Below, one piece after another: positions 25,206 through 43,671 of a stretch of 64,000 nucleotides of DNA. The stretch comes from Chloroflexota bacterium. GTDB lineage: Bacteria > Chloroflexota > Dehalococcoidia > Lucifugimonadales > UBA2985. Where the stretch lies: assembly GCA_028877205.1 (NCBI GenBank), contig JAPPHY010000003.1:64083-128082 (forward strand). Reading direction: 5' to 3'. The notes beneath the pieces were generated by a model. The model saw nothing but the letters and a program-made list of their open reading frames with translations. It was not told the DNA's origin and searched no databases. A program made the position numbers and the translations under genes. Every line of letters begins with the position of its first letter. Position 1 is the first letter of the stretch.

Positions 25206-25233
25206 GGTGTCCTTTCGCCTGCTCTTCAGGTGT

Positions 25234-25966: not shown

Positions 25967-26098
25967 CGCGCTTGGTTCCCACCGACCGAGATTCACCGAA
26001 ACGGGTTACTACATGAGACAACCTTGCAAAAGTGCCGCGTGCAAGATCAGGAAACAGCAAACTGGAATAGCTACACCTGAGCAGAAGGAGAACTATCG

Positions 26099-28402
26099 AT
26101 GGAACTGATACTCAATCGCACTGGAAGCCTGAGACGACTTGCGCAGACGCTGGCGTTGGGCATTGCCCTGTTCGCCCTCATGTTCTTGGGCGCCTGTGCA
26201 GGCGACGAGCCAACCGAGGCACCTCAGCCGACCGCCACTTCTACCAGCGCCCCGGCAACTGTTGTGGCAACCCCCACGGACGCACCTCCGCCCACGGAGG
26301 CTGCCGCTCCCTCAGGCCCGCAGCTCCAGGTGGTTGCCACCTCCAACATTGTGGCCGACTGGGCCGGGGTGGTAGGTGGTGATAGGGCTGAGGTCTTCAG
26401 CCTTCATCCATCGGGTGGCGATCCGCACAATCTCGTGCCGGGAGCAGGCGACGTTGCCAAGGTGGCCGACGCAGACGTTGTGTTGTCCATCGGGCTTGGC
26501 CTTGAGGCAGTCTGGTTGGAGGACCTGGTGCATAACGCCAGTGCAGATCCATCTAGGGTAGTTGCGCTTGGCAACGGCGTCGATCCTCTGGAGTTCGTGG
26601 AGACGGGCGGCCACGGCCACGATGATCACGATGATCACATGGATGAGGGCGGCGGTGAGCTGCTGGGGCGCCTGCTCATAGGCGATGGAGAGCTTGGGAA
26701 TCTCTCCGTTATTGACCTGGAAACGGGAGACGTGGACCAGGACCACTTTGACCTGGGCTCACGCGCCGGCCGGATATACGCAACCAAGAGCGGACGCTAC
26801 GCAATAGCCGTTTCCTCAGACGCCAATACGGCGCATGTGTTCGATGGCGGCATATACATGGAGCCGCATGGAGACCACTTCGACCTGGTCGAGGGCGACG
26901 TACGCAAGCTCCCCATCGACCTGAGCGGAGACCGGCCTGTCCACATGTACGTCGGCGGCGAGTGGGCCGCGGTCTACTACGACGGTTCCGGCGACTTCGT
27001 GCTGATCAATGAGCACGAGCTTGAGGAAGAGGGAGACTCCTACGTGCCGGTCAGTATGAACGCCGGTGCCCACCACGGCGCCGTGGTGCCGCTGGAAGGC
27101 GACCTGTTCGCAGTGACAATCCAGCACCCGGACTTTGACCAGAACCCCCAGGACTACCGATTACCCATCGGCGCCGAGATCTGGGATCTGGACGGCAACG
27201 TCCTCCATCGCGCGGAAGGCTGCCCCGACCTCCACGGCGACGCCGGCAACGGGCACATGGCCGTGTTCGGCTGCACCGGCGGGGTGCTGATGGTAGAGGC
27301 GCACGGCGGCGACTACGAACACGATTTCATTTCAGCTCCGGCCGGATCTCCCGAGGACTTTCGGCTCACATCCGTGTGGGGCTACTACGGCCTGGACCAC
27401 TTCTTCGCTCTGGGCTCGGCGGTGGGGCTGTACGTCGTGGAGCCGGAAGAGGGAGAGATGGAGATGCTCATCCCAGCTACAGAGGCTCTCCGCCCGATCC
27501 AGGTCCACCTTGGCCCTGGCGGTGAGACTCTGTTGGTGGTCATGAGTGACGGCGAGCTGCGAGTGTACGACGCCCACGACGGAGAACTGCGGGCGTCCAA
27601 GCGAGACTTTCTCACAGCGCCGGTGGAGACGGGCTTCTGGGCGCGACCTCACCTGGCCACCGCGCCTGGCGCAATCTTCATCACGGACTCGGTGGGAGGC
27701 GAAGTCCTGCAGCTGGACGAGCACGACCTGGAGGTGGTCAGGCACTGGGACGTGGCGGGAGTGCCCACCAAGATTGCTTTCGTTGGAATTATGGGTGAGG
27801 CTGAAGGCCACGAGGAGCATGGCCATGAAGAGGAAGGCCAGGACGAGCATGGCCACGAAGGGCACGACCACGGGCCTCTCGATCCCCATTTCTGGTTCGA
27901 TCCGAATCGAGTCAAGATTGCTGTCTACGATATAGCAGCTCGGCTCTCGGCACTTGACCCTGAGGGCGCTAGCTACTACTACCGGAACGCAGCGGACTAC
28001 GCGGTGCAGCTTGACGAGCTTCACACATGGATTCAGGAGCAGGTCAGCGTGGTGGCGCCGGAGCGCAGGCTGCTGGTTACGTCCCACGACACCTTCGCGT
28101 ACTTTGCAGATGTCTACGGGTTTGAGGTAATCGGTGCCCTCATTCCCTCCCTGGCGCCCGACGTGGAGCCCTCTGCGGAGCACCTTGCGGAAGTGGTCGA
28201 GGTGATCCGTGAGCACAACGCGCCGGCTGTATTCAGCGAAACGACGGTCAGCGGGAGGCTGCCGGAGGCCGTGGCTAGGGAGACTGGAGCGGAGTTTGCC
28301 CAGCTCTATGCGGACTCTCTGGGCGAAAGGGGCAGCCCGGCCGGCACGTACCTCGGTATGGTGCGAACAAACGTGGAGGTCATGGTCGGGGTGTTGAGGT
28401 GA
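26099..28402 (+). CDS. ZnuA/TroA-type metal-binding lipoprotein with a ~385-aa beta-propeller-like domain nested in the His-rich loop
   Basis: Lipobox FLGAC. N-lobe LQVVATSNIVADWAGVVGG...GGDPHNL. His/Asp run GHGHDDHDDH (26609..26640). Insert. Second His/Glu run EGHEEHGHEEEGQDEHGHEGHDHG (27803..27874). C-lobe PHFWFDPNRV...TSHDTFAYFADVYG...VFSETT. Confidence 0.8.
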   Translation: MELILNRTGSLRRLAQTLALGIALFALMFLGACAGDEPTEAPQPTATSTSAPATVVATPTDAPPPTEAAAPSGPQLQVVATSNIVADWAGVVGGDRAEVFSLHPSGGDPHNLVPGAGDVAKVADADVVLSIGLGLEAVWLEDLVHNASADPSRVVALGNGVDPLEFVETGGHGHDDHDDHMDEGGGELLGRLLIGDGELGNLSVIDLETGDVDQDHFDLGSRAGRIYATKSGRYAIAVSSDANTAHVFDGGIYMEPHGDHFDLVEGDVRKLPIDLSGDRPVHMYVGGEWAAVYYDGSGDFVLINEHELEEEGDSYVPVSMNAGAHHGAVVPLEGDLFAVTIQHPDFDQNPQDYRLPIGAEIWDLDGNVLHRAEGCPDLHGDAGNGHMAVFGCTGGVLMVEAHGGDYEHDFISAPAGSPEDFRLTSVWGYYGLDHFFALGSAVGLYVVEPEEGEMEMLIPATEALRPIQVHLGPGGETLLVVMSDGELRVYDAHDGELRASKRDFLTAPVETGFWARPHLATAPGAIFITDSVGGEVLQLDEHDLEVVRHWDVAGVPTKIAFVGIMGEAEGHEEHGHEEEGQDEHGHEGHDHGPLDPHFWFDPNRVKIAVYDIAARLSALDPEGASYYYRNAADYAVQLDELHTWIQEQVSVVAPERRLLVTSHDTFAYFADVYGFEVIGALIPSLAPDVEPSAEHLAEVVEVIREHNAPAVFSETTVSGRLPEAVARETGAEFAQLYADSLGERGSPAGTYLGMVRTNVEVMVGVLR

Positions 28403-28565
28403 GCTTCTACTTCAAACTACAAGGAAGGAGCACGTCGCCCGTGGGCCTGACTGTTGAGTTCGAAGGCCCACGGCCCTGGGCCAAGTAAGTGCCGGGGGTC
28501 CTGGGGGTAGAGACGGGCAATCTGGAAAGTAACACACTCGGGAAGTCAGATTGTAAGGAGGAGAG

Positions 28566-28751
28566 ATGGAAGAGCTTAAGGCCTATTCGGTGAAGCTGCG
28601 GAGGATGGTGACCATCAAGGACCCGGAGATAGTGACCCTGAAGAATGGACGGAAGGCCGTCCGCGGTGTCGCGGCGGAAGATCCGTCCAGTAGGGTCATG
28701 AGAATCGTGAATGCCGAGCAAGCGGAGAAGATTCGAGAGTCGCTGGGCTGA
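28566..28751 (+). CDS. small conserved-looking protein resembling a Cys-less DUF5679-type zinc-ribbon protein
   Basis: ATG sits behind AAGGAGGAGAG. The 61-aa product is MEELKAYSVKLRRMVTIKDPEIVTLKNGRKAVRGVAAEDPSSRVMRIVN... Its spacing matches the A-Y-C-V-K-C...T-(L/M)-K-N-G-R...G-V-C-P-x-C family I recall, but all four Cys are replaced. Confidence 0.5.
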   Translation: MEELKAYSVKLRRMVTIKDPEIVTLKNGRKAVRGVAAEDPSSRVMRIVNAEQAEKIRESLG

Positions 28752-28785
28752 TCGGGGCCGCCTCCGACCAGACAATAGCGGTATC

Positions 28786-28821
28786 GCAGCCTTGGCCCTG
28801 GAACTCTAGGGCCAAGGCTGC
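28786..28821. terminator. 13-bp perfect hairpin between convergent genes
   Basis: GCAGCCTTGGCCC-TGGAACTCTA-GGGCCAAGGCTGC lies between the small gene (+) and the RHH paralogue (-). There is no T-tract. Confidence 0.5.
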
Positions 28822-28868
28822 AGTCAATGAGTTGTGCGCTTTACTCACGCGCGGTAAGTGAGGCTCAT

Positions 28869-29096
28869 TCAGCGCGGGCTCAAGTCCGGCTCATCTATCT
28901 CGTCCATCTCGTTGCACCCGTGGAACAATGCCCAAAGGTCCTCCGGTGACTCGAGACGCATGACGCTTCTACCGGCCTCGATGCGCTCGCGTGCTGCGTC
29001 CAGCAGCCACGCGTCAAGGGACATGCCCTCGCGCCGCGCCTGGTGGACAAAGCGCTCCTGGTCCTCGTCGGATATCACAAGTTCCACTCTGGCCAT
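28869..29096 (-). CDS. orphan ribbon-helix-helix antitoxin paralogue
   Basis: MARVELVISDEDQERFVHQARREGMSLDAWLLDAARERIE is clearly paralogous to the antitoxin at 24930..25205. There is no room for a toxin gene downstream: 47 nt separate it from the hairpin. Confidence 0.65.
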   Translation of the reverse strand: MARVELVISDEDQERFVHQARREGMSLDAWLLDAARERIEAGRSVMRLESPEDLWALFHGCNEMDEIDEPDLSPR

Positions 29097-29177
29097 ACTG
29101 TCACCTCGTTTGCGCAATCGAGAGTGTGTAACGCTCCTCTATGCTGACGGGAGTTGAGTCAATCGCAACGCCCCCAA

Positions 29178-30533
29178 TCACCCCGCCGCCGCTCGCAGCG
29201 CGCGAGCCAACGGCTCTTCCTGGCCGGGGAGCACGGTGCGCGGGTCGATGACCACCCGGTCGTCCTCGATGCGTGCAACGACGGGCGGTTCACCCGCGCG
29301 CAGTCTGGCCGCGAGTGCCTGCGCATCACCCGCGTCGACCGTGAGCAGCCACGTCGGGAGCGTCTCGCCGGGCAGGCTGCCGCCTCCCACTGTCGACAGG
29401 CCGCGCTCGACGCTGCCAATGCCGCCTGCGGCCTCCTGTAGCCTGCGGGCCGCCGCCTCCAGGCCGTCGAGCGGCGCGGCCATCATCCTCCACACCGGTA
29501 TCGCTTCCACGGCCTCGCCCTTCAGATAGTGCACGAGTGTTGCCGTTAGGGCCGCCAGGCTGAGCTTGTCGATTCGCATAGCGCGGGCCAGTGGGTGGGC
29601 AGCCAGGAGCGACACCGCCTCTCGCTTGCCCACAATGATGCCGGCCTGCGGACCCCCAAGGAGCTTGTCGCCGGAGAAGCAGGCGAGGTCGACGCTCGCG
29701 GTCACGCTCTGCTGCACCATCGGCTCGTGCGCCAGCCCAAAGCGAGCCGTGTCCAGCAGGCATCCGCTGCCCAGGTCGTGGATCACCGGCACTCCGTGTC
29801 GCGCGCCCATCTCCACCAGCTCGTCGACGGTCGCCTCGTGGGTGAATCCGGTGATGACGAAGTTGCTGGAGTGGACCTTCAGGAGCGCGCCCGTTTCGGC
29901 GCAGATCGCGTCCTCGTAGTCGGCGGCGTAGGTACGGTTGGTGGTGCCCACCTCCCGCAGGACGGCGCCGCTACGATTGAGCACGTCCGGAATACGAAAC
30001 CCGCCGCCGATCTCCACGGCCTCGCCTCGGGATACGACGACCTCTCTGCCGTGCGCGATTGCCGAAAGCGCGAGCAGCACGGCGGAGGCGTTGTTGTTGA
30101 CGACCAGGGCGGCCTCCGCACCCGTCAGGCGGCGCAGGACGCTCGACACGTGGGCCTGCCTCGAGCCGCGTGTGCCATCGTACAGGTCAAGCTCCAGGTC
30201 GGAGTAGGACGTTGCCACGCGTGCGACGGCCTCGGCTGCGGCGTCGCTGAGCGGCGCGCGGCCGAGGTTGGTGTGCAGCACGACGCCCGTGGCGTTGATC
30301 ACGGCCGATGGCGATGCGGCTAGCAGCCGTGAGGCTTGGGCGCACACGTCATAGACGAGCTCATCAAGCGGGGGTGGCGGGACGCCATCCGCCACGCCAC
30401 GGCGAGCGTCCTCCAGACGCTCGCGTGCCAGTGCGGCAACCGTATCGTGCGAGGCTTCAACGGCCAGGGCGCGCAGGCGTGCGTCGGACAGGAGCCTGTC
30501 GACGCTCGGTATGCGTCTGTAGCCGGTTGACAT
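29178..30533 (-). CDS. selA: L-seryl-tRNA(Sec) selenium transferase
   Basis: RRIPSVDRLL N-terminus, INATGVVLHTNLGRAPL, and FSGDKLLGGPQAGII (PLP lysine motif). 451 aa. Confidence 0.9.
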   Translation of the reverse strand: MSTGYRRIPSVDRLLSDARLRALAVEASHDTVAALARERLEDARRGVADGVPPPPLDELVYDVCAQASRLLAASPSAVINATGVVLHTNLGRAPLSDAAAEAVARVATSYSDLELDLYDGTRGSRQAHVSSVLRRLTGAEAALVVNNNASAVLLALSAIAHGREVVVSRGEAVEIGGGFRIPDVLNRSGAVLREVGTTNRTYAADYEDAICAETGALLKVHSSNFVITGFTHEATVDELVEMGARHGVPVIHDLGSGCLLDTARFGLAHEPMVQQSVTASVDLACFSGDKLLGGPQAGIIVGKREAVSLLAAHPLARAMRIDKLSLAALTATLVHYLKGEAVEAIPVWRMMAAPLDGLEAAARRLQEAAGGIGSVERGLSTVGGGSLPGETLPTWLLTVDAGDAQALAARLRAGEPPVVARIEDDRVVIDPRTVLPGQEEPLARALRAAAG

Positions 30534-30552
30534 GGGCTGGAGAGGAGGCCGC

Positions 30553-31938
30553 CTAGCTCCCGGCGGAGCCCCGCCGATCGTCCTCGGCCTCGCGAGCCAG
30601 GGCCAGGATCTCCTCGGCCGAGAAGAAGGTGCGCCGCTGGCCCACCAGCGTGTCGCTGTCGCGGTCGTAGGAGCCGTCGTACGATGCCTGAATGTGGTCG
30701 TAGACGTGCTTGACGGCGCGGCTCACGGTGGAGTAGGTGCCCTCCTGCCCGGTCTCCTCCTTGACCTTGCGATTGAGGACCGAGACGATGCCGTCCATGC
30801 CAGATAGAGCGCCGATTCGGTGCTGCTCGACGGCCTCGTCGCCCACCATCGCGGCATCGAACGGAAGGTAGATGGGCCCGCCGCCCGCGTCGTCGGAGCG
30901 GCGCACCCCGGTCTGGTGTATGCCGGCCTGCGTGGAGAACACCTCGCCGATGATTGGCTGCTTGGGCGGGATGGTGCACACCTCGGTCGTGATCAGGTCC
31001 CTGATGCGCGCGACCACGTCCAGCCTGAAGCCCGGGTCGCCGTACTCGCGAATGTAGCTGGCCATAACCTGCTCCAGAGCAGTGTTGCCCGTCCTCTCGC
31101 CCAGGCCCGCAAAGGCGACGTTCACGCGCCGGCAGCCGTAGCGCAGGGCGGCCATGCTGTTGGCGGTGGCCATGCCGAAGTCGTTGTGGCCGTGGAACTC
31201 GAGCTCCGCGCCGGTCTCCCGCACAAGCGTTGAGATGAGGCGCGGGATGCCGACGGGCAGCGGCGCGTACGGGTCGGGCGAGCCCCATCCGATGGTGTCG
31301 CAGATGCGGAACTTCGCCCAGTTGTCGGTCTCGTCGAGCACGCGCTGCATGAACGGAATGACGAAGCCGTGGATGTCCGCCTTCGTGGTGTCCTCCAGGT
31401 GAATGCGGGGACGGATGCCGTTCTCGCAGGCGGTGAGGATGGGCGCGAGGTACTTCTCCACGGCCTCGGCCTTGCTGCGGTACTTCAGCTTGTCGAAGAT
31501 GTGGTGGTCGGAGCTGGAGGCGAGCATGCCAGTCTCCTTGATGGAGCCGCGGGAGACGTCCACCAGATCCCTGATGTCCTTGGGGATTGCCCTCGTCCAG
31601 GTGGTGACCTGCGGGAACGCGTACTCGCGCTCCAGCAGGCGCTCCAGTGCCCATAGGTCGCGCTGCTGATAGATGAACACCTCGATCTGCTCGATGATGC
31701 CGGTGCCGTTGTCCAGTTCGTGGAGCAGGTCGAAGTAGCGCAGGCGCGCGTCGACGGGAAAGAGCGCGAAGTGCGGGTCCTGGGCGCCGTCGCGCAGCGT
31801 GGTGTCGGTGATGAGCTTAGGGTGCGTCTTGTCGGTGACGGACGGAATGGGCGCGGGCTTATCCTCCATGGGCAGGGGTGGGAACCTGCCCGCGTAGTTG
31901 TAGTAGCGTATTTCCGGGTCTATGTGATACTCCGCCAT
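30553..31938 (-). CDS. HMGL-like (homocitrate/isopropylmalate synthase family) enzyme, possibly Re-citrate synthase
   Basis: DTTLRDGAQ...HLEDTT...EFHGHNDFGMATANS are the DRE-TIM metal-site motifs. It has a long N-terminal extension and no LeuA regulatory domain. Confidence 0.7.
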   Translation of the reverse strand: MAEYHIDPEIRYYNYAGRFPPLPMEDKPAPIPSVTDKTHPKLITDTTLRDGAQDPHFALFPVDARLRYFDLLHELDNGTGIIEQIEVFIYQQRDLWALERLLEREYAFPQVTTWTRAIPKDIRDLVDVSRGSIKETGMLASSSDHHIFDKLKYRSKAEAVEKYLAPILTACENGIRPRIHLEDTTKADIHGFVIPFMQRVLDETDNWAKFRICDTIGWGSPDPYAPLPVGIPRLISTLVRETGAELEFHGHNDFGMATANSMAALRYGCRRVNVAFAGLGERTGNTALEQVMASYIREYGDPGFRLDVVARIRDLITTEVCTIPPKQPIIGEVFSTQAGIHQTGVRRSDDAGGGPIYLPFDAAMVGDEAVEQHRIGALSGMDGIVSVLNRKVKEETGQEGTYSTVSRAVKHVYDHIQASYDGSYDRDSDTLVGQRRTFFSAEEILALAREAEDDRRGSAGS

Positions 31939-31967
31939 GACTTCCTCCTCCCTCGTCGTGGCCGTGC

Positions 31968-33719
<1,752 letters not shown>

Positions 33720-33838
33720 GTTGCCTCCTTGCACCGGAAGACGGGAGGTATGGGGGCTGACTCTATATTAGCCCAAAGCGAGCAGGCTAGACAATCCCTG
33801 GTGCGCCGAAGGCAGCCCGCTCAAATGGTTCGACTGGG

Positions 33839-33934
33839 GCTCACCCCGGAATCGGGTACGGGGCAGGCCATGAGCGGGCTGAGGTGACTCACCGTCCGCT
33901 CACCCTGAGGTTGTCGAAGGGTGTGAGCGGGAGC
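33839..33934. repeat. intergenic hairpin repeat, copy B
   Basis: GCTCACCCCGGAATCGGGTACGGGGCAGGC...CCGCTCACCCTGAGGTTGTCGAAGGGTGTGAGCGGGAGC. The internal imperfect inverted repeat is CCGCTCAC/GTGAGCGG. Confidence 0.6.
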
Positions 33935-33947
33935 AGTTGGGCGGCCC

Positions 33948-34511
33948 CTACTCCCCCGCAACAAGCCCCAGCTGCCCCGCGACCGGCTTAAGCGCATCAA
34001 CCACAAACTCGATGAGCTCGTCCAGCTCAACGCCGAGGTCTGCCGCGCCCTCCACCAGGTCGTCGCGGTTCACGTTGCGGGCGAAGGCCTTGTCTTTCAT
34101 CTTGCGGCGCACGGCGCGCGCGTCCGTGTCGGCCAGGCTCTTGGTCGGCCGCACCAACGCCACCGCGGTCACGAAGCCGGACAGCTCGTCGACGGCGAAG
34201 AGCGCCTTCTCCATCAGGCTCTCGCGTGCGACGCCGGTGTGGTTGCCGTGGGAGAGGACTGCGCGGACGATCACGTCCGGGTAGCCGCGCTCCCGCAGGA
34301 TGGCGGCGCCGAACTCCGGGTGCTGGTCGTCGGATGGGCAGGCGTCCCAGTCGAAGTCGTGGAGCATACCGGCAATGCCCCACGTCTCCTCGTCCTCGCC
34401 CACGCTGCGGGCGTAGGCGCGCATCGACGCCTCAACCGCCACGCAGTGCTTGAGCAGCCTCTCCGACTGTGCGAACTCCTGCACCAGTGCCCATGCGGTG
34501 TCTCTGTCCAT
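33948..34511 (-). CDS. HD-domain phosphohydrolase
   Basis: ATG at 34511 sits behind AAGGAGG. LLKHCVAVE...GMLHDFDW carries the H...HD motif. Confidence 0.8.
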   Translation of the reverse strand: MDRDTAWALVQEFAQSERLLKHCVAVEASMRAYARSVGEDEETWGIAGMLHDFDWDACPSDDQHPEFGAAILRERGYPDVIVRAVLSHGNHTGVARESLMEKALFAVDELSGFVTAVALVRPTKSLADTDARAVRRKMKDKAFARNVNRDDLVEGAADLGVELDELIEFVVDALKPVAGQLGLVAGE

Positions 34512-34545
34512 GTCATCCTCCTTGCGGGGGAGTGCCGTCAGCGGC

Positions 34546-35394
34546 TCAGTCGCTGGGGCCCTCATCAGACGGCGGCTCCTCCTTTGGGTCGCACTTGCGC
34601 GCCGTGGTGATGAACCCTGTGTGCGCGATCATGCGGTGCGCCGGCCTGACGCTGCGCCTCGTCACCGACCACGGCCGAGTGAGCACCTCCACCGTTTCCA
34701 TCATCTCGAAGTTGGGATTCTCGGCCAGCGCCTCGTATAGCTGGTACACCTGTAGTATGGTCGGCAGGTAGCCCAGGAAGATGCCGCCGGGAGCCAGCGA
34801 CGTGGCCGCGTGCGGCACAACGTGCCACGGCTCCGGCACGTCCAGCACGATGCGGTCCAGCCCGGTCTCCTCGACGCCCTCGTAAACGTCCTTCAGCCTG
34901 ACCTCCAGGTTGGCCGCCTGAGGCACCAGCGTCCGGATGTTGGCGCCTGCGCCGTCCACCAGCTCCGGCCTGACCTCGTAGGTGGTCACGTGCCCGTGCT
35001 CGCCGACGGCCCTGAGCAGCGCGATGGTGAGCGCGCCGGAGCCAAGGCCGGCCTCCAGCACGTGTGCGCCAGGAAAGATGTCGCCGTGCATGAGTATGGC
35101 GCCCAGGTCCTTGGCGTATATCACCTGCGTCTGGTGCGGCATCTCCTCCACGAAGTCGCCGAGCGTGGGCGAGAAAGCCAGCAGCACGTGTCCCGTGGTG
35201 GTGTTCAGGCGGGCGCCCTGGCTGCGGCCGATCAGGTCGTTGTGGTCGATCGCACCCACGTGGGTGTGGAACGACTTGTAAGGCTCCAGCGTTATCAGGT
35301 AACGCCTGCCGCGCCTGTCCACCAGCAGGGCGGGATCACCCTCGGCGAACGGGCGACGACCGTTCCGTTCGTCAGAATCGTTGTGCGAGGTCAT
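34546..35394 (-). CDS. trmI: tRNA (adenine(58)-N1)-methyltransferase TrmI
   Basis: FHTHVGAIDHNDLIG...TQVIYAKD...VLEAGLGSGALT...LDVPEPW is GCD14/TrmI-type. Confidence 0.85.
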   Translation of the reverse strand: MTSHNDSDERNGRRPFAEGDPALLVDRRGRRYLITLEPYKSFHTHVGAIDHNDLIGRSQGARLNTTTGHVLLAFSPTLGDFVEEMPHQTQVIYAKDLGAILMHGDIFPGAHVLEAGLGSGALTIALLRAVGEHGHVTTYEVRPELVDGAGANIRTLVPQAANLEVRLKDVYEGVEETGLDRIVLDVPEPWHVVPHAATSLAPGGIFLGYLPTILQVYQLYEALAENPNFEMMETVEVLTRPWSVTRRSVRPAHRMIAHTGFITTARKCDPKEEPPSDEGPSD

Positions 35395-35415
35395 GCGTGG
35401 GAGCCGCGGAGTCGG

Positions 35416-35874
35416 CTAGAGCCGGTCCAGCTCCTCCAGGATCTCGCTGGGATTGGGCAGGCCCTGCGTGTACACCTTCTTGAACCGGATCACGCCCTCT
35501 TTGTCGATGATGATGACGGCGCGCATGGTGACGCCCCGCTCCTCGTTGTAGATGCCGAACAGCTGCGACACGTGGCCCTTGGGGTGGAAATCGGCCAGGA
35601 GTGGGTAGGGCAGGTTGCCCAGCCCCGTTGCGAAGGCCCTCTGCGTTGGTGCGCTGTCGACGCTCATGCCCAGAACCTGGGCATCCTTCTCCTCGAACCG
35701 GCGGTTCTCCAGCCGGAACCCGGAGCACTGGTGCGTTCAACCGCCTGTGAAGGACATGACGTGGGTCTGCAGGACCACGTTCTTCTGTCCCAGGTATTGG
35801 CTCAGGGTGATGTCCTCGCCCGTGTGGGAACGGAGGGTGAAGTCGGGCGCCTTATCTCCTACTTCTGCCGGCAT
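35416..35874 (-). CDS. AhpE-like 1-Cys peroxiredoxin with selenocysteine (in-frame UGA at 35739..35737)
   Basis: ATG at 35874 sits behind GGAGG. ORFs 35737..35958 and 35416..35667 are in the same frame. The joined product is MPAEVGDKAPDFTLRSHTGEDITLSQYLGQKNVVLQTHVMSFTGG-U-THQCSGFRLENRRFEEKDAQVLGMSVDSAPTQRAFATGLGNLPYPLLADFHPKGHVSQLFGIYNEERGVTMRAVIIIDKEGVIRF... The UGA falls where AhpE-type enzymes have the peroxidatic Cys (AFTGIC). Confidence 0.75.
35698..35723 (-). other. candidate bacterial SECIS hairpin
   Basis: The mRNA 13 nt after the UGA reads CCGG-GUUC-[CGGCUGGA]-GAAC-(CG)-CCGG. That is two 4-bp stems with a 2-nt bulge and an 8-nt G-rich loop. Folded by eye only. Confidence 0.4.
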
Positions 35875-36010
35875 GGGAGGCCTCCTGAAGTTGATGCGTG
35901 CATTATACCCGAACGGGCTGCCTCTTGCGATGCGGGGAGCGCGACACGCCCCGCTCACGCTCGAATCCAGCGCGGGCGGGGCGGTTCGTCAAATACCGTT
36001 GCGAGGCAGG

Positions 36011-37249
36011 TTAGGTGGTGGAGCGCTCGCTTCGCGGGTCCTTGGCCAGGCCCTGGGACGTGCGGTCGATTATGACTGCCAGGATGACGATGCCCAGGCC
36101 GGCCAGAAGGCCCTTGCCGAGCTCCAGCTGGGATATGCCGTCGAACACGGCGGTGCCAAGGCCCGGCGCGCCCACCAGTGCGGCTATCACCGCCATTGCA
36201 AGCGCCATCATGATGGTCTGGTTGACCCCGGCCATTATCGTGGGCCTTGCCAGCGGCAGCTGGATCTTTATCAGAAGCTGCCACGGCGTGGTGCCGAACG
36301 CCCTTGCGGCCTCAATCAGCTCGGGCGACACCAGGCGGATGCCCAGGTTCGTGAGCCTCATGGCGGGAGGTATGGCGTAGACCATGGTCGCCATAACCGC
36401 CGGGGACTTGCCGATTCCCAGGAAGAATATGACCGGGATGAGGTACACGAACGCCGGCATAACCTGCATCAGGTCCAGCATGGGCCGCATTGCGGCCTGA
36501 AACCGGTCGCTCTTGGCCATAACGATGCCAAAGGGGATGGCCACACCAACCGACATCCCGGTTGCGGTTCCGACGACGGCCATTGTGCGCATGGCGTCGT
36601 CCCAGAGGTCGAAGATCACAATGCCGGCCAAGCCTGCCACCGACATGACGGCTACGTGCGTGCCGCTGGTCTTCCACGCCACCAGGGCGACGCACCCAAT
36701 GGTGAGCCACCAGGGCAGCGCTATGAGACCTCTTTCCAAGGGGACCAGTATCTTGTTCATGCCGTTCCTGACCGACTGGAAGAATGGCCGCCACCGCTCC
36801 ACCATCCAGTCGACCCTGTCGTCCAGCCAGTTGTCCAGCCCGCCTGGGCGGACCTCCAGGCCCAGGACGTTCACTGAGAGCGGCTTCACGACCGTCTCCC
36901 GCTCGTTCACCATGACCTCCTGCCCGGGAGCGCGGAACGGGAACGAGTCCGCCGGGCCCATGATGGCAACCAGCGTGAACAGCGTCACCACCAGGCTGCC
37001 GGCGACTCGCCACGGCCAAGAGTTCAGCGACTTCAGGGTGTGCCACACTATTGCTCCCATGGCAACGACAAAGAGCCAGAGAAAGAGCCTCGGAAAGAAG
37101 TTCGTTATTGTGGGGCCCTCCAGGTGATTCCAAAGGTCCCAAATCAGGTAGGCGGCCACGACCGCAAGGCCGAATCGAAGCCCCCACTGGCGGAGAGGCG
37201 CTGTGCCGCTCCATGTTCGGACTGTGCTCATGCTACGAGGAATATCCAT
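36011..37249 (-). CDS. proW: glycine betaine/proline-type ABC transporter permease (ProW/OpuAB-like)
   Basis: The C-terminal half carries the BPD permease core (...AMRTMAVVGTATG...LIEAARAFGTTPWQLL...), behind an N-terminal extension of about 190 aa. ATG sits behind GGGAGGAAG. Confidence 0.85.
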   Translation of the reverse strand: MDIPRSMSTVRTWSGTAPLRQWGLRFGLAVVAAYLIWDLWNHLEGPTITNFFPRLFLWLFVVAMGAIVWHTLKSLNSWPWRVAGSLVVTLFTLVAIMGPADSFPFRAPGQEVMVNERETVVKPLSVNVLGLEVRPGGLDNWLDDRVDWMVERWRPFFQSVRNGMNKILVPLERGLIALPWWLTIGCVALVAWKTSGTHVAVMSVAGLAGIVIFDLWDDAMRTMAVVGTATGMSVGVAIPFGIVMAKSDRFQAAMRPMLDLMQVMPAFVYLIPVIFFLGIGKSPAVMATMVYAIPPAMRLTNLGIRLVSPELIEAARAFGTTPWQLLIKIQLPLARPTIMAGVNQTIMMALAMAVIAALVGAPGLGTAVFDGISQLELGKGLLAGLGIVILAVIIDRTSQGLAKDPRSERSTT

Positions 37250-37320
37250 GTCTTCCTCCCTACGCTGTCTGGCCGGATCGTCCGGGTTGTCATACTGCGT
37301 TCGAGTTCGCTATGGCGTCC

Positions 37321-38604
37321 TCAGCGTACCACGCTCTCGCGGCTTGCTTCTGCTGCCTGGTGGTTCCTGGCAAGGCTGGCCAGGAGGGCGGTCCTCGGAA
37401 TGACTCCCAGAAGTCTGCCATCCTCGTCCACGACGGAAATGGGATGCTCAGTAGCAGCCGCCAGGGGTACCAGGTCGTCAATCGAGGTCTCCGGCGGTAC
37501 TCGCGGGCTGGCTGCCGACTCAGGGTAGTCCAGGTCCTGCAGGCGTGAAACCCCCCTGCTGGCAGCCTCTGCCGCCTGTCCTGCTGTGATCACTCCCATG
37601 AAGCCATCCGCCGAGTCCACCACCGCCGCTATGTCCACGCCGGCTTCGCGCATGGCGACCAGTGCGGATTCCGGCGGCTGGGTTGCCAGCGCCTTGGCGG
37701 CCGGGTCTTCCATGATGCTGGCGGCTCCCATGAGGCGGGTCTTGGAGACGTCCCGGATGAAGTCCTCAACGTAGGCGTCTGCGGGCCTCTCCACTATGTC
37801 CTCGGGTGCGCCCATCTGAATGATCTTGCCGTCCCGCATGATGGCAATGCGCGTGCCGAGCTTCAGAGCCTCATCGAGGTCGTGCGTGATGAAGATTATC
37901 GTCTTCTGAATGCGCTGCTGCAGGTTGAGCAGCTCATCCTGCATCTCCCGCCGGATTAGGGGGTCGAGGGCGCTGAAGGGTTCGTCCATGAGGAGTATTT
38001 CGGGGTCCACGGTTAGTGCGCGCGCCAGGCCCACACGCTGTTGCATACCGCCGCTGAGCTCCGTGGCGAAGGCGTTCTCCCAGCCCTGGAGTCCCACGAT
38101 CTCAAGGGACTGGCGGGCGCGTTCGTATCGGTCACGCTTGTTCATGCCCTGGACCTCCAGGCCCCAGGCGGCGTTGTCGATAATGGAGCGATGGGGGAGC
38201 AGCCCGAAGTGCTGGAAGACCATGGCGGACTTGCGGCGGCGGAATTGGGTGAGCTCCTTGTCGTTGTACTTGAGGACGTCCTCGCCGTCGATCCAGATTT
38301 CGCCTGAGGTTGGCTCGATGAGGCGGATGAGGCATCGAATGAGCGTGGACTTGCCGCTGCCGGAGAGGCCCATGACCACGAAGATCTCCCCGCGCTCCAC
38401 GTCGAAGCTGACGTCCTGGAGCGCAATCACGCATCCCAGCTCGGCCTGTATGTCGGCCTTGGATCGTCCCTCGTACTCTGGCGTCATCACCCGCTCGGGC
38501 AACGGCCCGAACACCTTCCAGAGATCCCGCACCGAGATCCTGTTTCCGGTGATGTCGGGCGTTAAGATAGCTGCATCCGGCTGCTGGCCGTTCTCGCTGC
38601 TCAT
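37321..38604 (-). CDS. proV: glycine betaine/proline-type ABC transporter ATP-binding protein with tandem CBS domains (ProV/OpuAA-like)
   Basis: ATG at 38604 sits behind AGGAGG. Walker A GLSGSGKST, signature LSGGMQQRVGLAR, Walker B LLMDEPFSALD, and a CBS-pair tail. Confidence 0.9.
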   Translation of the reverse strand: MSSENGQQPDAAILTPDITGNRISVRDLWKVFGPLPERVMTPEYEGRSKADIQAELGCVIALQDVSFDVERGEIFVVMGLSGSGKSTLIRCLIRLIEPTSGEIWIDGEDVLKYNDKELTQFRRRKSAMVFQHFGLLPHRSIIDNAAWGLEVQGMNKRDRYERARQSLEIVGLQGWENAFATELSGGMQQRVGLARALTVDPEILLMDEPFSALDPLIRREMQDELLNLQQRIQKTIIFITHDLDEALKLGTRIAIMRDGKIIQMGAPEDIVERPADAYVEDFIRDVSKTRLMGAASIMEDPAAKALATQPPESALVAMREAGVDIAAVVDSADGFMGVITAGQAAEAASRGVSRLQDLDYPESAASPRVPPETSIDDLVPLAAATEHPISVVDEDGRLLGVIPRTALLASLARNHQAAEASRESVVR

Positions 38605-38789
38605 AATCAACCTCCTACCAGGGCTCGAGGTCTGACTCGCCAATCGAGGCCGTCCCCTCGCCGCTCCGTCGCTCCCTGCGACTCCCGAAACCGGTGAACC
38701 TGGTGGATCCGTGCCTCCGCCGGGTTCACTGCGGAGCGCCGGTCTGAGTGCGCTTCCACTTTACCCCCGGAGGCCGTACGTGGAAGGGG

Positions 38790-39398
38790 TCATGCCTGAG
38801 CGGCAACCCCTCCCATGAATATGCGCCACATCTCGGCGCGCCTCTCTGCCAGCCTGGGCAGGTAGCTGTTGAGGGCCCAGAGGGTGGCGGTGCTCTGCAC
38901 CAGCCCCAGGAAGGCCGTTGCCGCCGCCTGAACGTCCACGTCCGGCCTTATGCTGCCCTCGAGCTTGCCGTCTTCCAGGACCTCCTGAAGGAACTCAAGA
39001 TAGTGGGTGAGCATCAGCGCCACACGGCTCTGCAATCCAATGCCATCGAAGCCTGTGGCCTCCGAAATTATGATGAATGAAACGGCGCCCCGGCCCTCCA
39101 CGTCGCTGAGGTGGGCCTCCAGAATGCGTTCCAGGTTCTCCTTCGCGGGCGCATCCTCCACGCGTGCGACTCGGAGCGTGCCCATCAGGCTCTCTTCTAT
39201 GTCGTCGATGAGCAGCGTCAGGATCTCGCGCTTGCTCTGGAAGTGGCGATAGATAGCCCCCTCGGTCACGCCCACGGCCTCAGCTATGGCGTCAATTGTG
39301 ACGCTCTCCATACCCTCGGAGGTGATGAGGTCCCGAGCAGCGTCGATGATCTGACGCCGTCGTACACTGGTGCTCTGTCTGTCTATACGAATAGCCAT
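38790..39398 (-). CDS. TetR-family transcriptional regulator
   Basis: The HTH region is RRRQIIDAARDLITSEGMESVTIDAIAEAVGVTEGAIYRHFQSKREIL. Confidence 0.9.
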   Translation of the reverse strand: MAIRIDRQSTSVRRRQIIDAARDLITSEGMESVTIDAIAEAVGVTEGAIYRHFQSKREILTLLIDDIEESLMGTLRVARVEDAPAKENLERILEAHLSDVEGRGAVSFIIISEATGFDGIGLQSRVALMLTHYLEFLQEVLEDGKLEGSIRPDVDVQAAATAFLGLVQSTATLWALNSYLPRLAERRAEMWRIFMGGVAAQA

Positions 39399-39410
39399 GA
39401 ACTAATGAAA

Positions 39411-39426
39411 GTAAGCGTTTGCTTAC
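39411..39426. promoter_or_regulatory. palindrome; candidate TetR operator
   Basis: GTAAGC-GTTT-GCTTAC lies 13 nt upstream of the TetR start, in the divergent intergenic region shared with the Cache lipoprotein gene. Confidence 0.45.
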
Positions 39427-39645
39427 AAGATAGTCGCATGTCGCGTTATTGTCAACCCCCGCGTCAAACCCTGACTTGGCAGGCGCCTTCCTCCGCTGCA
39501 CCTTCGTGAAAGTTGACTGCATTCTCTACGCTCGTTTATGCTTTCCTTAGGGAACGACGGCAGAGTTGGCATACTCACTCCAGAGAAGGTTCTGATCCCG
39601 AACGCCGCTACACCCCAGCACCCCTTGTACAAGGAGAGAACCTCG

Positions 39646-40548
39646 ATGAACCGCAGAACCATTTTCACCACAGCCACTGCGGCACTCCTCCTGATGCTGC
39701 TCGCTATTCTGCCTGCCTGCGACACGGGCGAGCCGACGTCCGTTCCGGGAATGGACTCGGAGCGCGACGCGCCCCTCAAGTCAGACAACGACGCCTACAC
39801 CCAGCACTTCGTCAGGCAGGCCATCGACATGTACGAGTCGGACGGCCTGGATGCGACTCTGGAATACTACAACACCCAGGAGAGCGTGGACGGCCAGTGG
39901 TACCTGTTCATCTACAACGATGACGATATTGCGCTGGCGCACGCGGTTAATCCGGCTCTCGTGGGCCGCCCTGCGTCGGAGGCTGTAGGCCCCAACGGCT
40001 ACCCCGCGGGCGAGGCTATAGCAGCGGTCGCTGACGAAGCCGGGTCATGGTTCACCTACACATTCCCTAACCCGCAGACGGGCGCGTCTGAGACCAAGCA
40101 TTCGTGGACGGTGCGTCACGATGGGCTGTTCTTCGGCTCGGGCTGGTACGAGCCCGGCACGCCCAAGTACGACCCTCCCGCCTACACGCAGGACTTCGTG
40201 CGGCAGGCCATCTCCCTGTACGACGCGCTCGGCCGCGATGCCGCCGTCGATTACTACAATACCGAGGAGAGCGTGGACGGCCAGTGGTACGTGTTCATCG
40301 TCGGCGAGGACGGGCGAACGATCGCACACTTCAATCCCATGTTCATCGGACGGGACCCGGACGAGCGAATCGACGCCGTCGGGTACTTCTACGGCGACGA
40401 CCTGTTGGGCGCCGAGGAGTCCGGCCGGTGGATCACATACGTGCTGACGAATCCAGAGCAGGGCGCAGAGAGGCGGAAGCACACTTGGGCCGTGCTCCAC
40501 GACGGCCTGATCTTCGCCTCCGGCTGGTACGAACAGCGCGACACATGA
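39646..40548 (+). CDS. lipoprotein made of two tandem single-Cache (sCache_2-like) domains
   Basis: ATG at 39646 sits behind AAGGAGAG, with lipobox AILPAC. Two units of about 125 aa recur: YTQ(H/D)FVRQAI..Y(E/D)..G.DA...YYNT(Q/E)ESVDGQWY(L/V)FI...GW(F/I)TY...P..G....KH(S/T)W.V.HDGL.F.SGWYE. Confidence 0.65.
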   Translation: MNRRTIFTTATAALLLMLLAILPACDTGEPTSVPGMDSERDAPLKSDNDAYTQHFVRQAIDMYESDGLDATLEYYNTQESVDGQWYLFIYNDDDIALAHAVNPALVGRPASEAVGPNGYPAGEAIAAVADEAGSWFTYTFPNPQTGASETKHSWTVRHDGLFFGSGWYEPGTPKYDPPAYTQDFVRQAISLYDALGRDAAVDYYNTEESVDGQWYVFIVGEDGRTIAHFNPMFIGRDPDERIDAVGYFYGDDLLGAEESGRWITYVLTNPEQGAERRKHTWAVLHDGLIFASGWYEQRDT

Positions 40549-40603
40549 CGCGGGCTCTGTGCACAGGGCTCATTCTTGACGGCAAGTTGCCTAGACTCTG
40601 CAT

Positions 40604-41134
40604 ATGCAGGAAGCGGCCGGAATCAGCAAGCGCGTGAACGCCGGGACACTATCGATAGGTGCACGTGCGGTCCTGGTGGCATTAATCGCGGGACTCGCCG
40701 TAATGGCGGCCTGCACTTCATCGGAAGGCCTGGACGGGACGTCAACGTCCGCCGGTCCGCAGCCGGGCCAGCAGACCTTCGAGACGGTCTGTGCGGCGTG
40801 CCACGGAGCGGTAGGAGAGGGCCAGCCAAACTGGCACATTCGTAAGTCCGACGGCACTCTACCGGCTCCTCCGCTAAACGGCACGGGCCACACATGGCAT
40901 CACGCCGACGGCCTTCTCTTTCGGATAGTCAGCAAGGGCGGTGAGCTCTGGGAAGACCCGAGCCTGCCTGATCTCAAGAGCGGCATGCCCGGCTTCGAGA
41001 TGCAGCTCTCCCGCGAGGAGATCATCGCCGTCCTCGAGTACGTCAAGAGCCTCTGGGTGGACAGGCAGGCCCGCGGCGTGTCCATAGTGGAGCACCAGTC
41101 CCGCATCAGCGAGGCAGACCCGTTTCCTCAGTGA
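40604..41134 (+). CDS. membrane/lipid-anchored class I c-type cytochrome
   Basis: Lipobox-like LAVMAAC, heme motif CAACHG, and a distal Met in KSGMPGF. Confidence 0.8.
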   Translation: MQEAAGISKRVNAGTLSIGARAVLVALIAGLAVMAACTSSEGLDGTSTSAGPQPGQQTFETVCAACHGAVGEGQPNWHIRKSDGTLPAPPLNGTGHTWHHADGLLFRIVSKGGELWEDPSLPDLKSGMPGFEMQLSREEIIAVLEYVKSLWVDRQARGVSIVEHQSRISEADPFPQ

Positions 41135-41264
41135 ACAAGCCTTCGCGAAGCCGAATTCGACGTCAACAGACGAAAGGGCGCTTGCTATAATGTCGCCCGC
41201 CGGCGTCCGCGGTGGACTAACTCGTGGGAGTGGACGCGGCAGAGGACACGTGACCGAAAGCGAT

Positions 41265-42020
41265 ATGCGTAAGCGAAGCGGGACGCAGGCCGCGCCAAAG
41301 CTGCACGACGTTCGCCTCGGCGGCGACACCATCCGCTTTGAGCTGCGGCGCAGCGCCCGTCGCACCAGGACCATCAACATCAGGGTGGAAGGAGACCGTG
41401 TAGTCCTGGCAGTGCCCGTCCGCACGCCCCTTAGCGAGGCGCGTGACATCGTACGCAAGCGCGCGACCTGGATCCTGGACCATCTCGCCAGGACGCCGGT
41501 ACAGCCACCACAGCTGCTGGTCGAAGGCCGCGGCGAGCTGCCGTTCATGGGTCGGAGCGTTCCAGTGATGGTCGAGCCTTCGGCGGTACGCTCGGCGGCG
41601 GCGCGGCTGGTCGATGACACACTGCGCGTCAATGTGCCGCCTGCACTCGACGCCGAACTGCGCGACGAATCCGCGAGGCACGCGGTCGTCGAATGGCTGC
41701 GAGTGCAGGCGGCGGAGAAGCTGCCGGTTGAAGTGGAGCGGTGGTGGCCCAGGCTGGGCACGGGAGAGCATGCGCGCGTACGTATTGGCAATCAGCGTCG
41801 GCAGTGGGGCAACTGCTCTGCGGAGGGCGTCATTCGCTTCAGCTGGCGTGTGATGATGCTGGAGCCGGAGCTTATCGAGTATGTGGTGGTGCACGAGATG
41901 GCGCACCTCACGCGGATGGACCATTCGAAGGAATACTGGGCGCTGGTGGCGCGCGCGATGCCGGACGCTGCGGACCGGCGGCGAAGGCTGCGGGAGGTGC
42001 AGGACACGCTGCCGCTGTGA
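41265..42020 (+). CDS. YgjP-like (DUF45, M48-related) metal-dependent hydrolase
   Basis: WGNCSAEGVIRFSWRVMMLEPELIEYVVVHEMAHL...HSKEYW is the typical DUF45 C-terminal HExxH block. Confidence 0.8.
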   Translation: MRKRSGTQAAPKLHDVRLGGDTIRFELRRSARRTRTINIRVEGDRVVLAVPVRTPLSEARDIVRKRATWILDHLARTPVQPPQLLVEGRGELPFMGRSVPVMVEPSAVRSAAARLVDDTLRVNVPPALDAELRDESARHAVVEWLRVQAAEKLPVEVERWWPRLGTGEHARVRIGNQRRQWGNCSAEGVIRFSWRVMMLEPELIEYVVVHEMAHLTRMDHSKEYWALVARAMPDAADRRRRLREVQDTLPL

Positions 42021-42035
42021 GGCGGCGATGGTCTG

Positions 42036-42811
42036 TCAGGCGTGGTCAGGCGTGCAGTACACCATCTCCATGGGCAGGCCGCGTGAGTCGCGCGGCGGCA
42101 CTGCCGGCAGGGTGGCGAGTGTTCCGCGGCCACTCTTCCAGAGCCAGCCTGTGACCGCAGCCGCGAGCGCGTCTAGTATGTCGTCTCTGGCAACCTGGCT
42201 TCGACTTGTGCCATCAATCATCTCTAGGAACATGCTGCGAACCGGTGGCAGGCGGTGTCCAAGCACGCGGAGGCGTTCATACTCACCAGGCCGCTCATCC
42301 TTGCCAAGCCGCTTCTTCTTGTTGTGGCTCATCGGCTTCCCCTCGTTCAGCGCCCAGAAGCAGACCTCTGGGTGCACCTCCCGAATCGGCGGTCGCGGTG
42401 CCCCTATATTGGCAGTAAGCAGGGTGTCTAATTCCGCAATCTTGCGCGCGATATGAAATGACTGCTGGCTGAGGCCCCTCTCGGCAAACTCTCGCTCTAT
42501 GCAGGAAGCAGCCTTGTAGCTGTTGGTGCACATTGCGACTCGCGCTGTCAGGCGCGTTGGTGTAGTGAACACGCTTGAGGCTCTGCGCTTCAGAACACAA
42601 CGCGCCTCATCATCACACGCACGGCGCGTTCCGTCCTCTGACAGGCCGATTGGCATGTCCACGAACACTAGCTTTGCGTCTGAGTTGCACTCCAGCAGCT
42701 TCTCGAAAGTCTTGAACACGCCGCATCGGACGAGGCTGCCATTCCAGTCCAGCGCTACGCTGAACAGCCGGCCGGGCACCCGTCCACGCCAACGAACACG
42801 CTCTGCGACAC
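42036..42811 (-). pseudogene. DUF429 (RNase H-like fold) gene with an apparent 1-nt deletion near codon 15
   Basis: GTG at 42811 sits behind GGGAGGA and gives VSQSVFVGVDGCPAGCSA-stop. The long ORF (42036..42779) continues in the +1 frame as ...FSVALDWNGS. Restoring one G (GGCTGTTC to GGCTGGTTC) yields GVDGCPAGWFSVALDW, the DUF429 N-terminal consensus. Confidence 0.6.
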
Positions 42812-42985
42812 GTGGTCCTCCCTTCCCAATTCCTCGAACTAGTCGGCGAGCTCATCATATCACGTATGGGTAGCGTTCCCCTCGCGCTACAATTGACGGC
42901 GGAAGTCTGCGCCGTTACAATGATGTATCTCTCGTTGCACGGGCGGCCGGAACGGTCGAATCCGTGCCAAGGTGACGACGAACGA

Positions 42986-43543
42986 ATGAGAATCGGCCTG
43001 ATCTCGGATACGCACACCCCGGGAACCGGCAAGGAGCCGCCCCCGGAGGTTGCAATGGCTTTCGAGGGCGTGGACCTCATCCTCCACGCGGGCGACATAT
43101 ACATATCCTCCTGCCTCGACTGGCTGGAGCGCATTGCTCCCGTGACGGCGGTTGAGCTTGGCTCCAAGGCCCACTTCGAGGATGACCCGCGCGTAGAAGA
43201 AAAGCGCGTGTTCGAGCTGGAAGGCTACACCTTCGCAATGGTGCACGACCTCATCATACCCGGCATGGGTGGTGAGGTGATGCAAGGCACCCTTCCGCGT
43301 CAGTTCACATCCGAGGGCAGCCTGCCCAAGGCGCTGGAGGGCGTGTTCGGCGCACCCATCGACATCGTGGTATTCGGCCACACTCATCACGCCGTGATTG
43401 AGAAGCACCAGGGCGTCCTGCTGGTCAATCCCGGCAGTCCCACGCTGCCAAAGCAGGTGCGCCGCCTAGGCGAGGTGGGTATCCTGGAGCTTACGCCAGA
43501 GGGCCCGGAGGCCACCATAGTAAATTTGACAGACTATCGGTAG
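42986..43543 (+). CDS. YfcE/MJ0936-family metallophosphoesterase
   Basis: MRIGLISDTH...ILHAGD...VVFGHTHH...NPGS is the calcineurin-like motif order. Confidence 0.85.
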   Translation: MRIGLISDTHTPGTGKEPPPEVAMAFEGVDLILHAGDIYISSCLDWLERIAPVTAVELGSKAHFEDDPRVEEKRVFELEGYTFAMVHDLIIPGMGGEVMQGTLPRQFTSEGSLPKALEGVFGAPIDIVVFGHTHHAVIEKHQGVLLVNPGSPTLPKQVRRLGEVGILELTPEGPEATIVNLTDYR

Positions 43544-43671
43544 CACGCAGTATAGCCAGGGCCGGGCCGGCACCACCACCTCCTCAGCCGGCGGTCGCAC
43601 GGCAGATCATCGGCGAGACACAGCCGCCATTCGATAACCCGAAACAACACATCTCGGCAGGAGGTGAGAGA

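Follow-up and report, generated by a model that had tools for sequence, protein, structure and literature searches.

Two minus-strand open reading frames, 35737..35958 and 35416..35667, stand in the mechanical ORF list of the window (i.e., the whole 64-kb stretch of DNA that was analysed), and a sequence-only reading had taken them for the two halves of a single peroxiredoxin gene. Both ORFs are present and lie in a common frame, and the gap between them consists, as that reading had it, of the TGA at 35739..35737 plus 69 nt, i.e., 23 sense codons. Translation through the TGA yields 152 residues, and this TGA, codon 46, is the sole interruption of the frame from ATG 35874 to TAG 35416 (Table 1). 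With Cys substituted for this stop, the product matches PF00578 (AhpC/TSA) with an E value of 2.8e-31 and scores 108.5 bits, where the cut-off is 26; the aligned part covers residues 5-131 and profile positions 1-123 of 124. Since the match extends across the read-through product, the locus holds one peroxiredoxin gene, not two. The start codon, too, is found where it had been placed, behind a Shine-Dalgarno sequence at a spacing of 6 nt, and relatives share this start site, M-x-x-(E/Q/D)-V-G. Farther upstream lies an exact TATAAT hexamer that may serve as a -10 box; it lacks a good -35 partner (fewer than 4/6 of the -35 positions match) and for this reason escaped the consensus scan.

Table 1. 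Genes, signals and predicted RNA structures at the peroxiredoxin locus, in window coordinates
Feature	Position	Strand	Remarks
AhpE-like peroxiredoxin CDS, predicted to contain selenocysteine	35416..35874	-	152 codons; ATG 35874..35872; stop TAG 35418..35416
In-frame TGA, codon 46, predicted selenocysteine	35737..35739	-	peroxidatic position (FTGG-U)
Shine-Dalgarno AGGAGG	35881..35886	-	6 nt before ATG 35874; direct sequence reading
TATAAT hexamer, possible -10 box	35902..35907	-	28 nt 5' of ATG
Val39 (GTC)	35758..35760	-	Pro position of PxxxTxxC/U motif; aligned to MtAhpE Pro38
Cys50 (TGC), candidate resolving residue	35725..35727	-	sole cysteine of the protein; U46-x-x-x-C50 pair
Hairpin HP1, predicted SECIS	35689..35725	-	+12..+48 nt from UGA; RNAfold
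HP1 lower stem	35725..35722 with 35692..35689		CUCC pairs with GGAG; internal loop above
HP1 upper stem	35716..35712 with 35702..35698		CCGGC pairs with GCCGG
HP1 apical loop	35711..35703	-	UGGAGAACC; 9 nt, three G
Hairpin HP2	35666..35684	-	+55..+73 nt from UGA; overlaps codons D64 to M70; AUGCCCAG-GUU-CUGGGCAU, 8 bp, GUU loop (consensus fold)
selA, L-seryl-tRNA(Sec) selenium transferase	29178..30533	-	451 aa; TIGR00474
TrmI/GCD14-type tRNA methyltransferase gene, downstream	34546..35394	-	PF08704 E 3e-29; PF14801 E 3e-15

A complete selA gene lies 4.9 kb from the peroxiredoxin gene (5 kb in the sequence-only reading) and matches TIGR00474 with an E value of 7e-166 and a score of 552.5 bits (cut-off 267.9) over profile positions 1-454 of 455. 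To our knowledge, selA has no role apart from the synthesis of selenocysteine (Sec). It is the only gene of the Sec machinery found in the window, so that the machinery on which the earlier proposal depends was located in part: selB and selD were not found in NCBIfam scans of 20 large window ORFs, which returned selA only; ARAGORN reported no tRNA in the window; and a whole-window scan gave no Rfam family, hence neither a tRNA-Sec nor a curated SECIS element. Nor did ARAGORN find a tRNA-Sec in the sequences flanking 60 related loci.

AhpE-like relatives and the active site

In a PDB search, the entries that match the protein best all belong to M. tuberculosis AhpE (MtAhpE, Rv2238c; PDB 1XVW, 1XXU, 4X0X, 5C04), the founding member of the AhpE subfamily, with E values of 1e-28 to 1e-26, whereas non-AhpE subfamilies are weaker (Prx1-type 4e-18, BCP 1e-13). 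MtAhpE, with 153 aa, and the window protein, with 152 aa, are collinear over residues 4-137, and 53 of the 134 aligned residues are identical (39.6%). Thr42, Cys45 and Arg116 of MtAhpE correspond to Thr43, codon 46 (UGA) and Arg118 of the window protein. The sequence-only reading had asserted that the TGA falls on the peroxidatic Cys, and this is what the alignments show: the Cys-containing homologues have their C exactly at the TGA position. The residues around it are also conserved, with Thr at U-3 in 71/71 Sec genes and an Arg118 that is invariant across the protein alignments. The AhpE-like label given earlier is justified because the AhpE entries top the solved relatives and the active-site residues align.

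While the two proteins are collinear, we note several differences between the window protein and MtAhpE. First, the window protein has a predicted Sec46 where MtAhpE has Cys45. Second, the Pro of the PxxxTxxC motif, which is Pro38 in MtAhpE, is absent from the window protein, which carries Val39. The residue at U-7 in the 71 Sec genes is P in 28, V in 26, I in 13, L in 3 and A in 1, i.e., a non-Pro residue (V/I/L/A) in 43/71. Third, MtAhpE is a 1-Cys enzyme, whereas the window protein has an extra Cys at U+4, so that its active-site motif reads T-G-G-U and then T-H-Q-C, i.e., TxxU and UxxxC. This additional Cys occurs in 12 of the 71 Sec genes, all of them from the window's own clade, and its presence suggests that the mechanism may differ from that of 1-Cys AhpE. 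Two other family assignments were considered and rejected. The thiol:disulfide oxidoreductase family termed 'Prx-like' is defined by a UxxC motif (PMC1088965), in contrast to the TxxU/UxxxC motif of the window protein, and the PrxU profile (NCBIfam NF040737) gave 63.5 bits vs. an equivalog cut-off of 270.

Conservation of the TGA codon and the genetic code

A scan with one genome per species yielded 562 relatives, the best 80 of which were re-aligned by tblastn and read at codon 46. Among these best 80 of 562 species-level relatives, the codon is TGA in 70 and TGC in 10. Most of the TGA-carrying genomes come from Dehalococcoidia and other Chloroflexota, with about 20 Thermoanaerobaculia/Acidobacteriota, one Armatimonadota MAG and one Planctomycetota MAG; they thus represent four phyla, and their protein identity to the window descends to 44%. 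In all 70 of them a full-length frame of 147-161 codons could be rebuilt, with the frame kept on both sides of the TGA, and the same TGA is present in the closest relatives, four independent MAGs whose proteins are 94-96% identical to that of the window. A pseudogene produced by a nonsense mutation, or a sequencing or assembly error in which TGA stands for TGC or TGT, would accord with the splitting of the gene by gene callers and with the presence in public databases of just an 83-98 aa C-terminal fragment. However, because TGA and full-length frames recur across independent genomes, with the flanking residues conserved down to 44% identity, both error and decay can be excluded for practical purposes, and the conserved RNA structure 3' of the TGA, described below, is a further argument against them. 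The orthologues therefore bear the sequence-only reading out: the TGA is shared by 70 of the best 80 relatives, and each Sec clade has some hairpin 3' of the UGA.

An intact gene could still be decoded in some way other than with Sec, either because the lineage has a variant code in which TGA means Trp or Gly, or because a near-cognate tRNA for Trp or Cys reads the codon with no need of the Sec machinery. Some public gene calls indeed give W here (P0001, P0004, P0006-P0011 and others) and one gives G (P0135), and selB, selD and selC are not seen within the window. However, TGA terminates 17 of the 44 likely genes in the window, and the genetic code is therefore standard; no other window gene requires read-through. 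Catalysis would be lost with Trp or Gly as the peroxidatic residue, and homologues have Cys there. In addition, selA is intact and the SECIS-like hairpin is conserved. Together these points make non-Sec recoding very unlikely. A screen by GC3 for a second TGA-interrupted gene in the window produced 25 candidates and no second case; apart from the peroxiredoxin ORF itself, these were off-frame shadows or ordinary same-frame neighbouring genes. With high confidence, though from sequence evidence, we propose that the minus-strand stretch 35874..35416 is one intact AhpE-type peroxiredoxin gene with a selenocysteine encoded by a recoded UGA.

Conserved RNA structures 3' of the UGA

The sequence-only reading had described a hairpin with a G-rich apical loop, beginning 13 nt after the UGA, at a distance usual for bacterial SECIS elements. 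RNAfold recovers this hairpin, HP1, including the G residues of its apical loop; its start, however, is 12 nt after the UGA rather than 13. Bacterial SECIS elements of the E. coli fdhF type are likewise hairpins located inside the coding sequence soon after the UGA, and their apical loop contains G. In HP1 this loop lies 26-34 nt from the UGA, and the usual loop distance in bSECISearch is 16-37 nt. We take HP1 to be the likely SECIS of the peroxiredoxin gene because it occupies the position expected of a bacterial SECIS.

When the 76 nt after the UGA were folded and compared with dinucleotide shuffles, the difference was not significant (z = -0.57). Since such a shuffle is uninformative in a gene of 65% G+C, it was replaced by synonymous resampling, in which the codons are redrawn with each locus's own codon usage while the protein sequence is kept. 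Against this control, the +9..+75 segment folds at -32.1 vs. -20.3+/-3.2 kcal/mol and HP1 at -19.4 vs. -10.3+/-2.4 kcal/mol, and in both cases 0/200 resamples are as stable. The resampling gives p<=0.01 in 41 of the 71 Sec genes, and in 31 of the 34 genes of the window's group. The same region stands out at synonymous sites: in the 34 genes, synonymous-codon identity is 0.73 over codons 50-62 vs. 0.45 upstream and 0.49 downstream, and the top 12 of 138 sliding windows ranked by this identity all begin at codons 49-60.

Covariation was examined in the same group. Pairing of HP1 is observed in 75.9% of cells in the 34 window-group genes, compared with 38-54% for slid partners; shuffles give 70.2% paired, and 0/500 of them reach the observed value. 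Compensatory changes, i.e., changes on both sides of a pair, occur at 8 of 13 pairs in this group (n=34), with examples such as CUCC/GGAG to CUCU/AGAG and CCGG/CCGG to CAGG/CCUG. RNAalifold returned no consensus pairs for HP1 on the whole 34-sequence set, because the register of the upper stem shifts among the sequences, but it recovered both HP1 and the second hairpin, HP2, on the window's own clade. An HP1-equivalent hairpin of the same geometry and different sequence is present in Thermoanaerobaculia, where it is 95% paired and includes a C-G to G-C swap. Elsewhere among the Sec clades the hairpins are smaller (+11..+31), and some hairpin lies within +10..+50 in every Sec clade. The compensatory changes, together with a stability beyond that of 200/200 synonymous resamplings, thus uphold the earlier claim of a conserved hairpin at the SECIS position.

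HP2 begins 6 nt 3' of HP1. Its pairs form in 87.3% of cells over 68 distinct Sec genes, compared with 17-43% for slid controls, and compensatory changes are found at 7 of its 8 pairs in the same 68 genes. The arrangement of 8 bp and a GUN loop, with compensatory changes, is seen in Sec forms of four phyla, and compensation persists despite a change in the protein, as in CCGAG/UUCGG of Thermoanaerobaculia. All 8/8 pairs form in 39 of the 71 Sec genes, but in only 1 of 12 Cys genes, or 2 of 16 after four more were added. Synonymous sites in this region are nearly fixed, with GAU at D64 in 0.98 and GGC at G69 in 0.87, whereas other Asp codons vary (0.58-0.88). The amino-acid sequence DAQVLG, however, supplies about 5.9 of the 8 pairs by itself, and two Sec clades are without HP2. 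In the canonical bacterial SECIS model there is no second hairpin, in contrast to the HP2 conserved 3' of HP1 here. We treat HP2 as probably accessory to HP1, and not as the SECIS, because its distance from the UGA exceeds what the canonical model allows and because it is missing in two Sec clades.

Sixteen Cys-form genes were subjected to the same resampling, and 14 of them gave no folding signal (p 0.13-0.97); these 14 either fall outside the Sec clades or belong to an AT-rich genome. The two others, L081 and L088, are Cys forms with FT(G/S)GC that are nested inside a Sec clade and have kept both hairpins, from which it follows that the hairpins are not strictly tied to the UGA. This is the main caveat, and we infer that L081 and L088 may be recent TGA-to-TGC conversions with relic SECIS elements. 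Alternatively, the hairpins may not be SECIS elements at all, but general mRNA structure or a by-product of high-G+C codon bias on the FEEK and DAQVLG stretches, with the recoding driven in some other way. The two Cys forms would fit such an origin, as would the share of HP2 pairs given by the protein sequence, the Sec clades lacking HP2 and the missing HP1 consensus of RNAalifold over all 34 sequences. However, none of the 200 resamples that preserve protein and codon usage matches the observed stability, D64 is fixed as GAU at 98% while other Asp codons vary, and compensatory changes are found even where the protein is altered. The 14 Cys forms without structure and the occurrence of a hairpin within +10..+50 in every Sec clade argue in the same direction, so that a structure unrelated to Sec decoding has only a slim chance of being the explanation.

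A stronger reading, that HP1 and HP2 form a bipartite recoding signal in which both would be needed for efficient Sec insertion, so that the bacterial SECIS would here have a new architecture, is tentative and in our view unlikely. HP2 covariation and the near-fixed synonymous sites speak for it; the absence of HP2 from two Sec clades, its retention in two Cys forms and the roughly 6 of 8 pairs that come from the protein sequence speak against it.

Proposed decoding, chemistry and relation to known selenoproteins

The scheme that follows is inferred from what is established about Sec decoding in bacteria and about the chemistry of peroxiredoxins; this applies to the insertion of Sec, the binding of SelB, the part played by HP2, and the catalytic cycle with its reductant. 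With the ribosome at UGA codon 46, HP1, located 12-48 nt 3', would be positioned at the mRNA entry channel, where it would recruit SelB-GTP with Sec-tRNA(Sec), leading to insertion of Sec instead of termination. The tRNA(Sec) would be charged via SelA, whose gene lies in the window. HP2 probably assists, e.g., by keeping HP1 stable or in place, or by delaying the ribosome, although it is not universal among the Sec forms. In the resulting enzyme, the Sec46 selenolate, activated by Thr43 and Arg118, would attack the hydroperoxide and form a selenenic acid. In the window clade only (12/71 genes), Cys50 of the UxxxC pair probably resolves the selenenic acid as a selenenylsulfide, which would then be reduced by a thioredoxin-like reductant. 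In the other clades, an external thiol would need to resolve the selenenic acid.

Sec peroxiredoxins as a kind have been known since 2001-2005 and constitute an abundant bacterial selenoprotein family. PrxU of Eubacterium acidaminophilum is reportedly an experimentally characterised Sec-peroxiredoxin, described by Sohling et al. in 2001. PrxU likewise has Sec at the peroxidatic position and an AhpC/TSA fold, but it belongs to a different subfamily, with a profile of 233 positions. The closer match is the family named 'Prx, TxxU' in surveys, which counted 43 genes in the Sargasso Sea (PMC1088965) and 253 in the GOS data (PMC2398784). A third survey, from 2006, gives 12 such genes in completed genomes with 5 independent Cys-to-Sec events, and it counts 3 selenoproteins for Chloroflexi, their families unnamed in the text consulted (PMC1794560). 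This family and the window protein share the AhpC/TSA domain (pfam00578 / COG1225) with numerous Cys homologues, Sec at the peroxidatic T-x-x-U (F-T-G-G-U in the window) and a hairpin with an apical G. However, the surveys assigned no Prx subfamily, whereas the window protein is AhpE-like. The sequence-only reading was therefore right that a selenoprotein of this kind was known, but the family is 'Prx, TxxU' and not 'Prx-like, UxxC'; the 'Prx-like' families of the surveys have UxxC motifs and form a separate group (PMC1088965, PMC2398784). A 2026 review lists Sec peroxiredoxins with a 'PxxxTxxU' motif, in which the Pro differs from the Val of the window protein (PMC13188914).

In the searchable literature, we found no description of the AhpE-subfamily assignment, of the predominance of Sec over Cys in Dehalococcoidia and Thermoanaerobaculia, of the non-Pro motif (43/71), of the UxxxC pair or of the second hairpin, and no paper linking selenoproteins with SAR202. 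The window gene would represent the AhpE subfamily in a naturally occurring Sec form, whose active-site motif lacks Pro and to which one clade adds the UxxxC pair. Such an enzyme would lend itself well to studies of how Sec and Cys compare as the catalytic residue of peroxiredoxins. The finding does not overturn current understanding.

The mis-annotation that the sequence-only reading had anticipated is indeed present, and systematic, in public records, which show C-terminal fragments of 83-99 aa. Such fragments are deposited in NCBI, IMG, ENA and Tara under the names 'redoxin domain-containing protein' or 'AhpC'. Examples are MQF99396.1 (98 aa, 'redoxin domain-containing protein [SAR202 cluster bacterium]'), MBH42969.1 (98 aa, 'alkyl hydroperoxide reductase [Chloroflexi bacterium]'), an IMG entry of 83 aa ('alkyl hydroperoxide reductase subunit AhpC') and Tara entries of 252 nt that are flagged as complete genes. 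Many relatives in protein databases are only such C-terminal fragments, and others carry W at the UGA (TGA under code 4). As a consequence, selenoproteins and antioxidant capacity are undercounted in Dehalococcoidia/SAR202-type Chloroflexota and in Thermoanaerobaculia. The Sec:Cys ratio of 70:10 among the best 80 of 562 relatives suggests that these lineages are probably selenium-dependent; these uncultured organisms probably need selenium for at least peroxide defence by the Sec peroxiredoxin.

The TrmI-type gene downstream starts 22 nt past the peroxiredoxin stop, and because the gap is so short the two genes are probably co-transcribed. The same gene order is also found with a Cys-form orthologue in L082-L084, and the TrmI-type gene is a conserved neighbour that stands outside the Sec mechanism.

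Hairpins downstream of the UGA and Cys forms

The second hairpin downstream of the UGA (HP2) overlaps codons D64 to M70 of the peroxiredoxin gene and is strongly conserved, with compensatory changes in four phyla. The canonical bacterial SECIS model does not include such an element. HP2 is absent from two Sec clades and is kept in two Cys forms, i.e., orthologues with TGC at the Sec position. The Cys-form genes of the related loci L081 and L088 carry both downstream hairpins, i.e., the predicted SECIS hairpin and HP2, at full strength, as judged by folding against synonymous-codon resampled sequences (p 0.005–0.01). Both genes appear to have switched from Sec to Cys recently and to retain their SECIS elements as relics.

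Features located in the window and at related loci L081 and L088
Feature	Position	Strand	Remarks
HP2 hairpin	35666..35684	-	8 bp, GUN triloop, 55–73 nt after UGA
Val39 codon of peroxiredoxin	35758..35760	-	replaces supposedly universal Pro of PxxxTxxC/U motif
TrmI/GCD14-type tRNA methyltransferase gene	34546..35394	-	start 22 nt past peroxiredoxin stop
767-aa ORF	26099..28402	+	AztC-like zinc ABC substrate-binding and AztD-like metallochaperone matches
887-aa ORF	43672..46335	+	two tandem family-III CoA-transferase (formyl-CoA transferase/CaiB-like) units
Cys-form (TGC) gene	L081:3001-3462		protein P0013; nested in Sec clade
Cys-form (TGC) gene	L088:521-979		protein P0003; nested in Sec clade

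Active-site motif and public gene calls

At the Pro position of the motif, 43 of the 71 Sec genes have Val, Ile, Leu or Ala, as do their nearest Cys forms (HIFSFTGGC, HVYSFTGGC). In public calls of relatives (proteins P0001, P0004, P0006–P0011, P0014, P0015, P0021 and P0022), the Sec position is given as Trp, which is the result of TGA being translated under code 4. A single NCBI entry, P0135, reads F-T-C-G-G-T-H-Q-C around this position; judged from the protein sequence, the Gly there could stem from a TGA translated under code 25, and a Cys stands two positions ahead of it.

Gene neighbourhood and other ORFs

The order peroxiredoxin to TrmI/GCD14-type gene is also found at L082-L084:3518-4276, beside the Cys-form orthologue of a low-G+C relative, and the pair thus constitutes a conserved gene neighbourhood. 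By its closest genomes, the organism belongs to the Dehalococcoidia (Chloroflexota); its G+C content is ~65%. Across window positions 1..64000, no tRNA genes were found and no Rfam families were matched at the gathering threshold.

Within the 767-aa ORF, the AztC-like matches fall in two stretches, the best of which covers residues 578–764, and the AztD-like match covers residues 198–562, an arrangement which suggests that the binding protein carries the AztD domain as a fusion or an insertion. The CoA-transferase units of the 887-aa ORF span residues 11–425 and 478–887.
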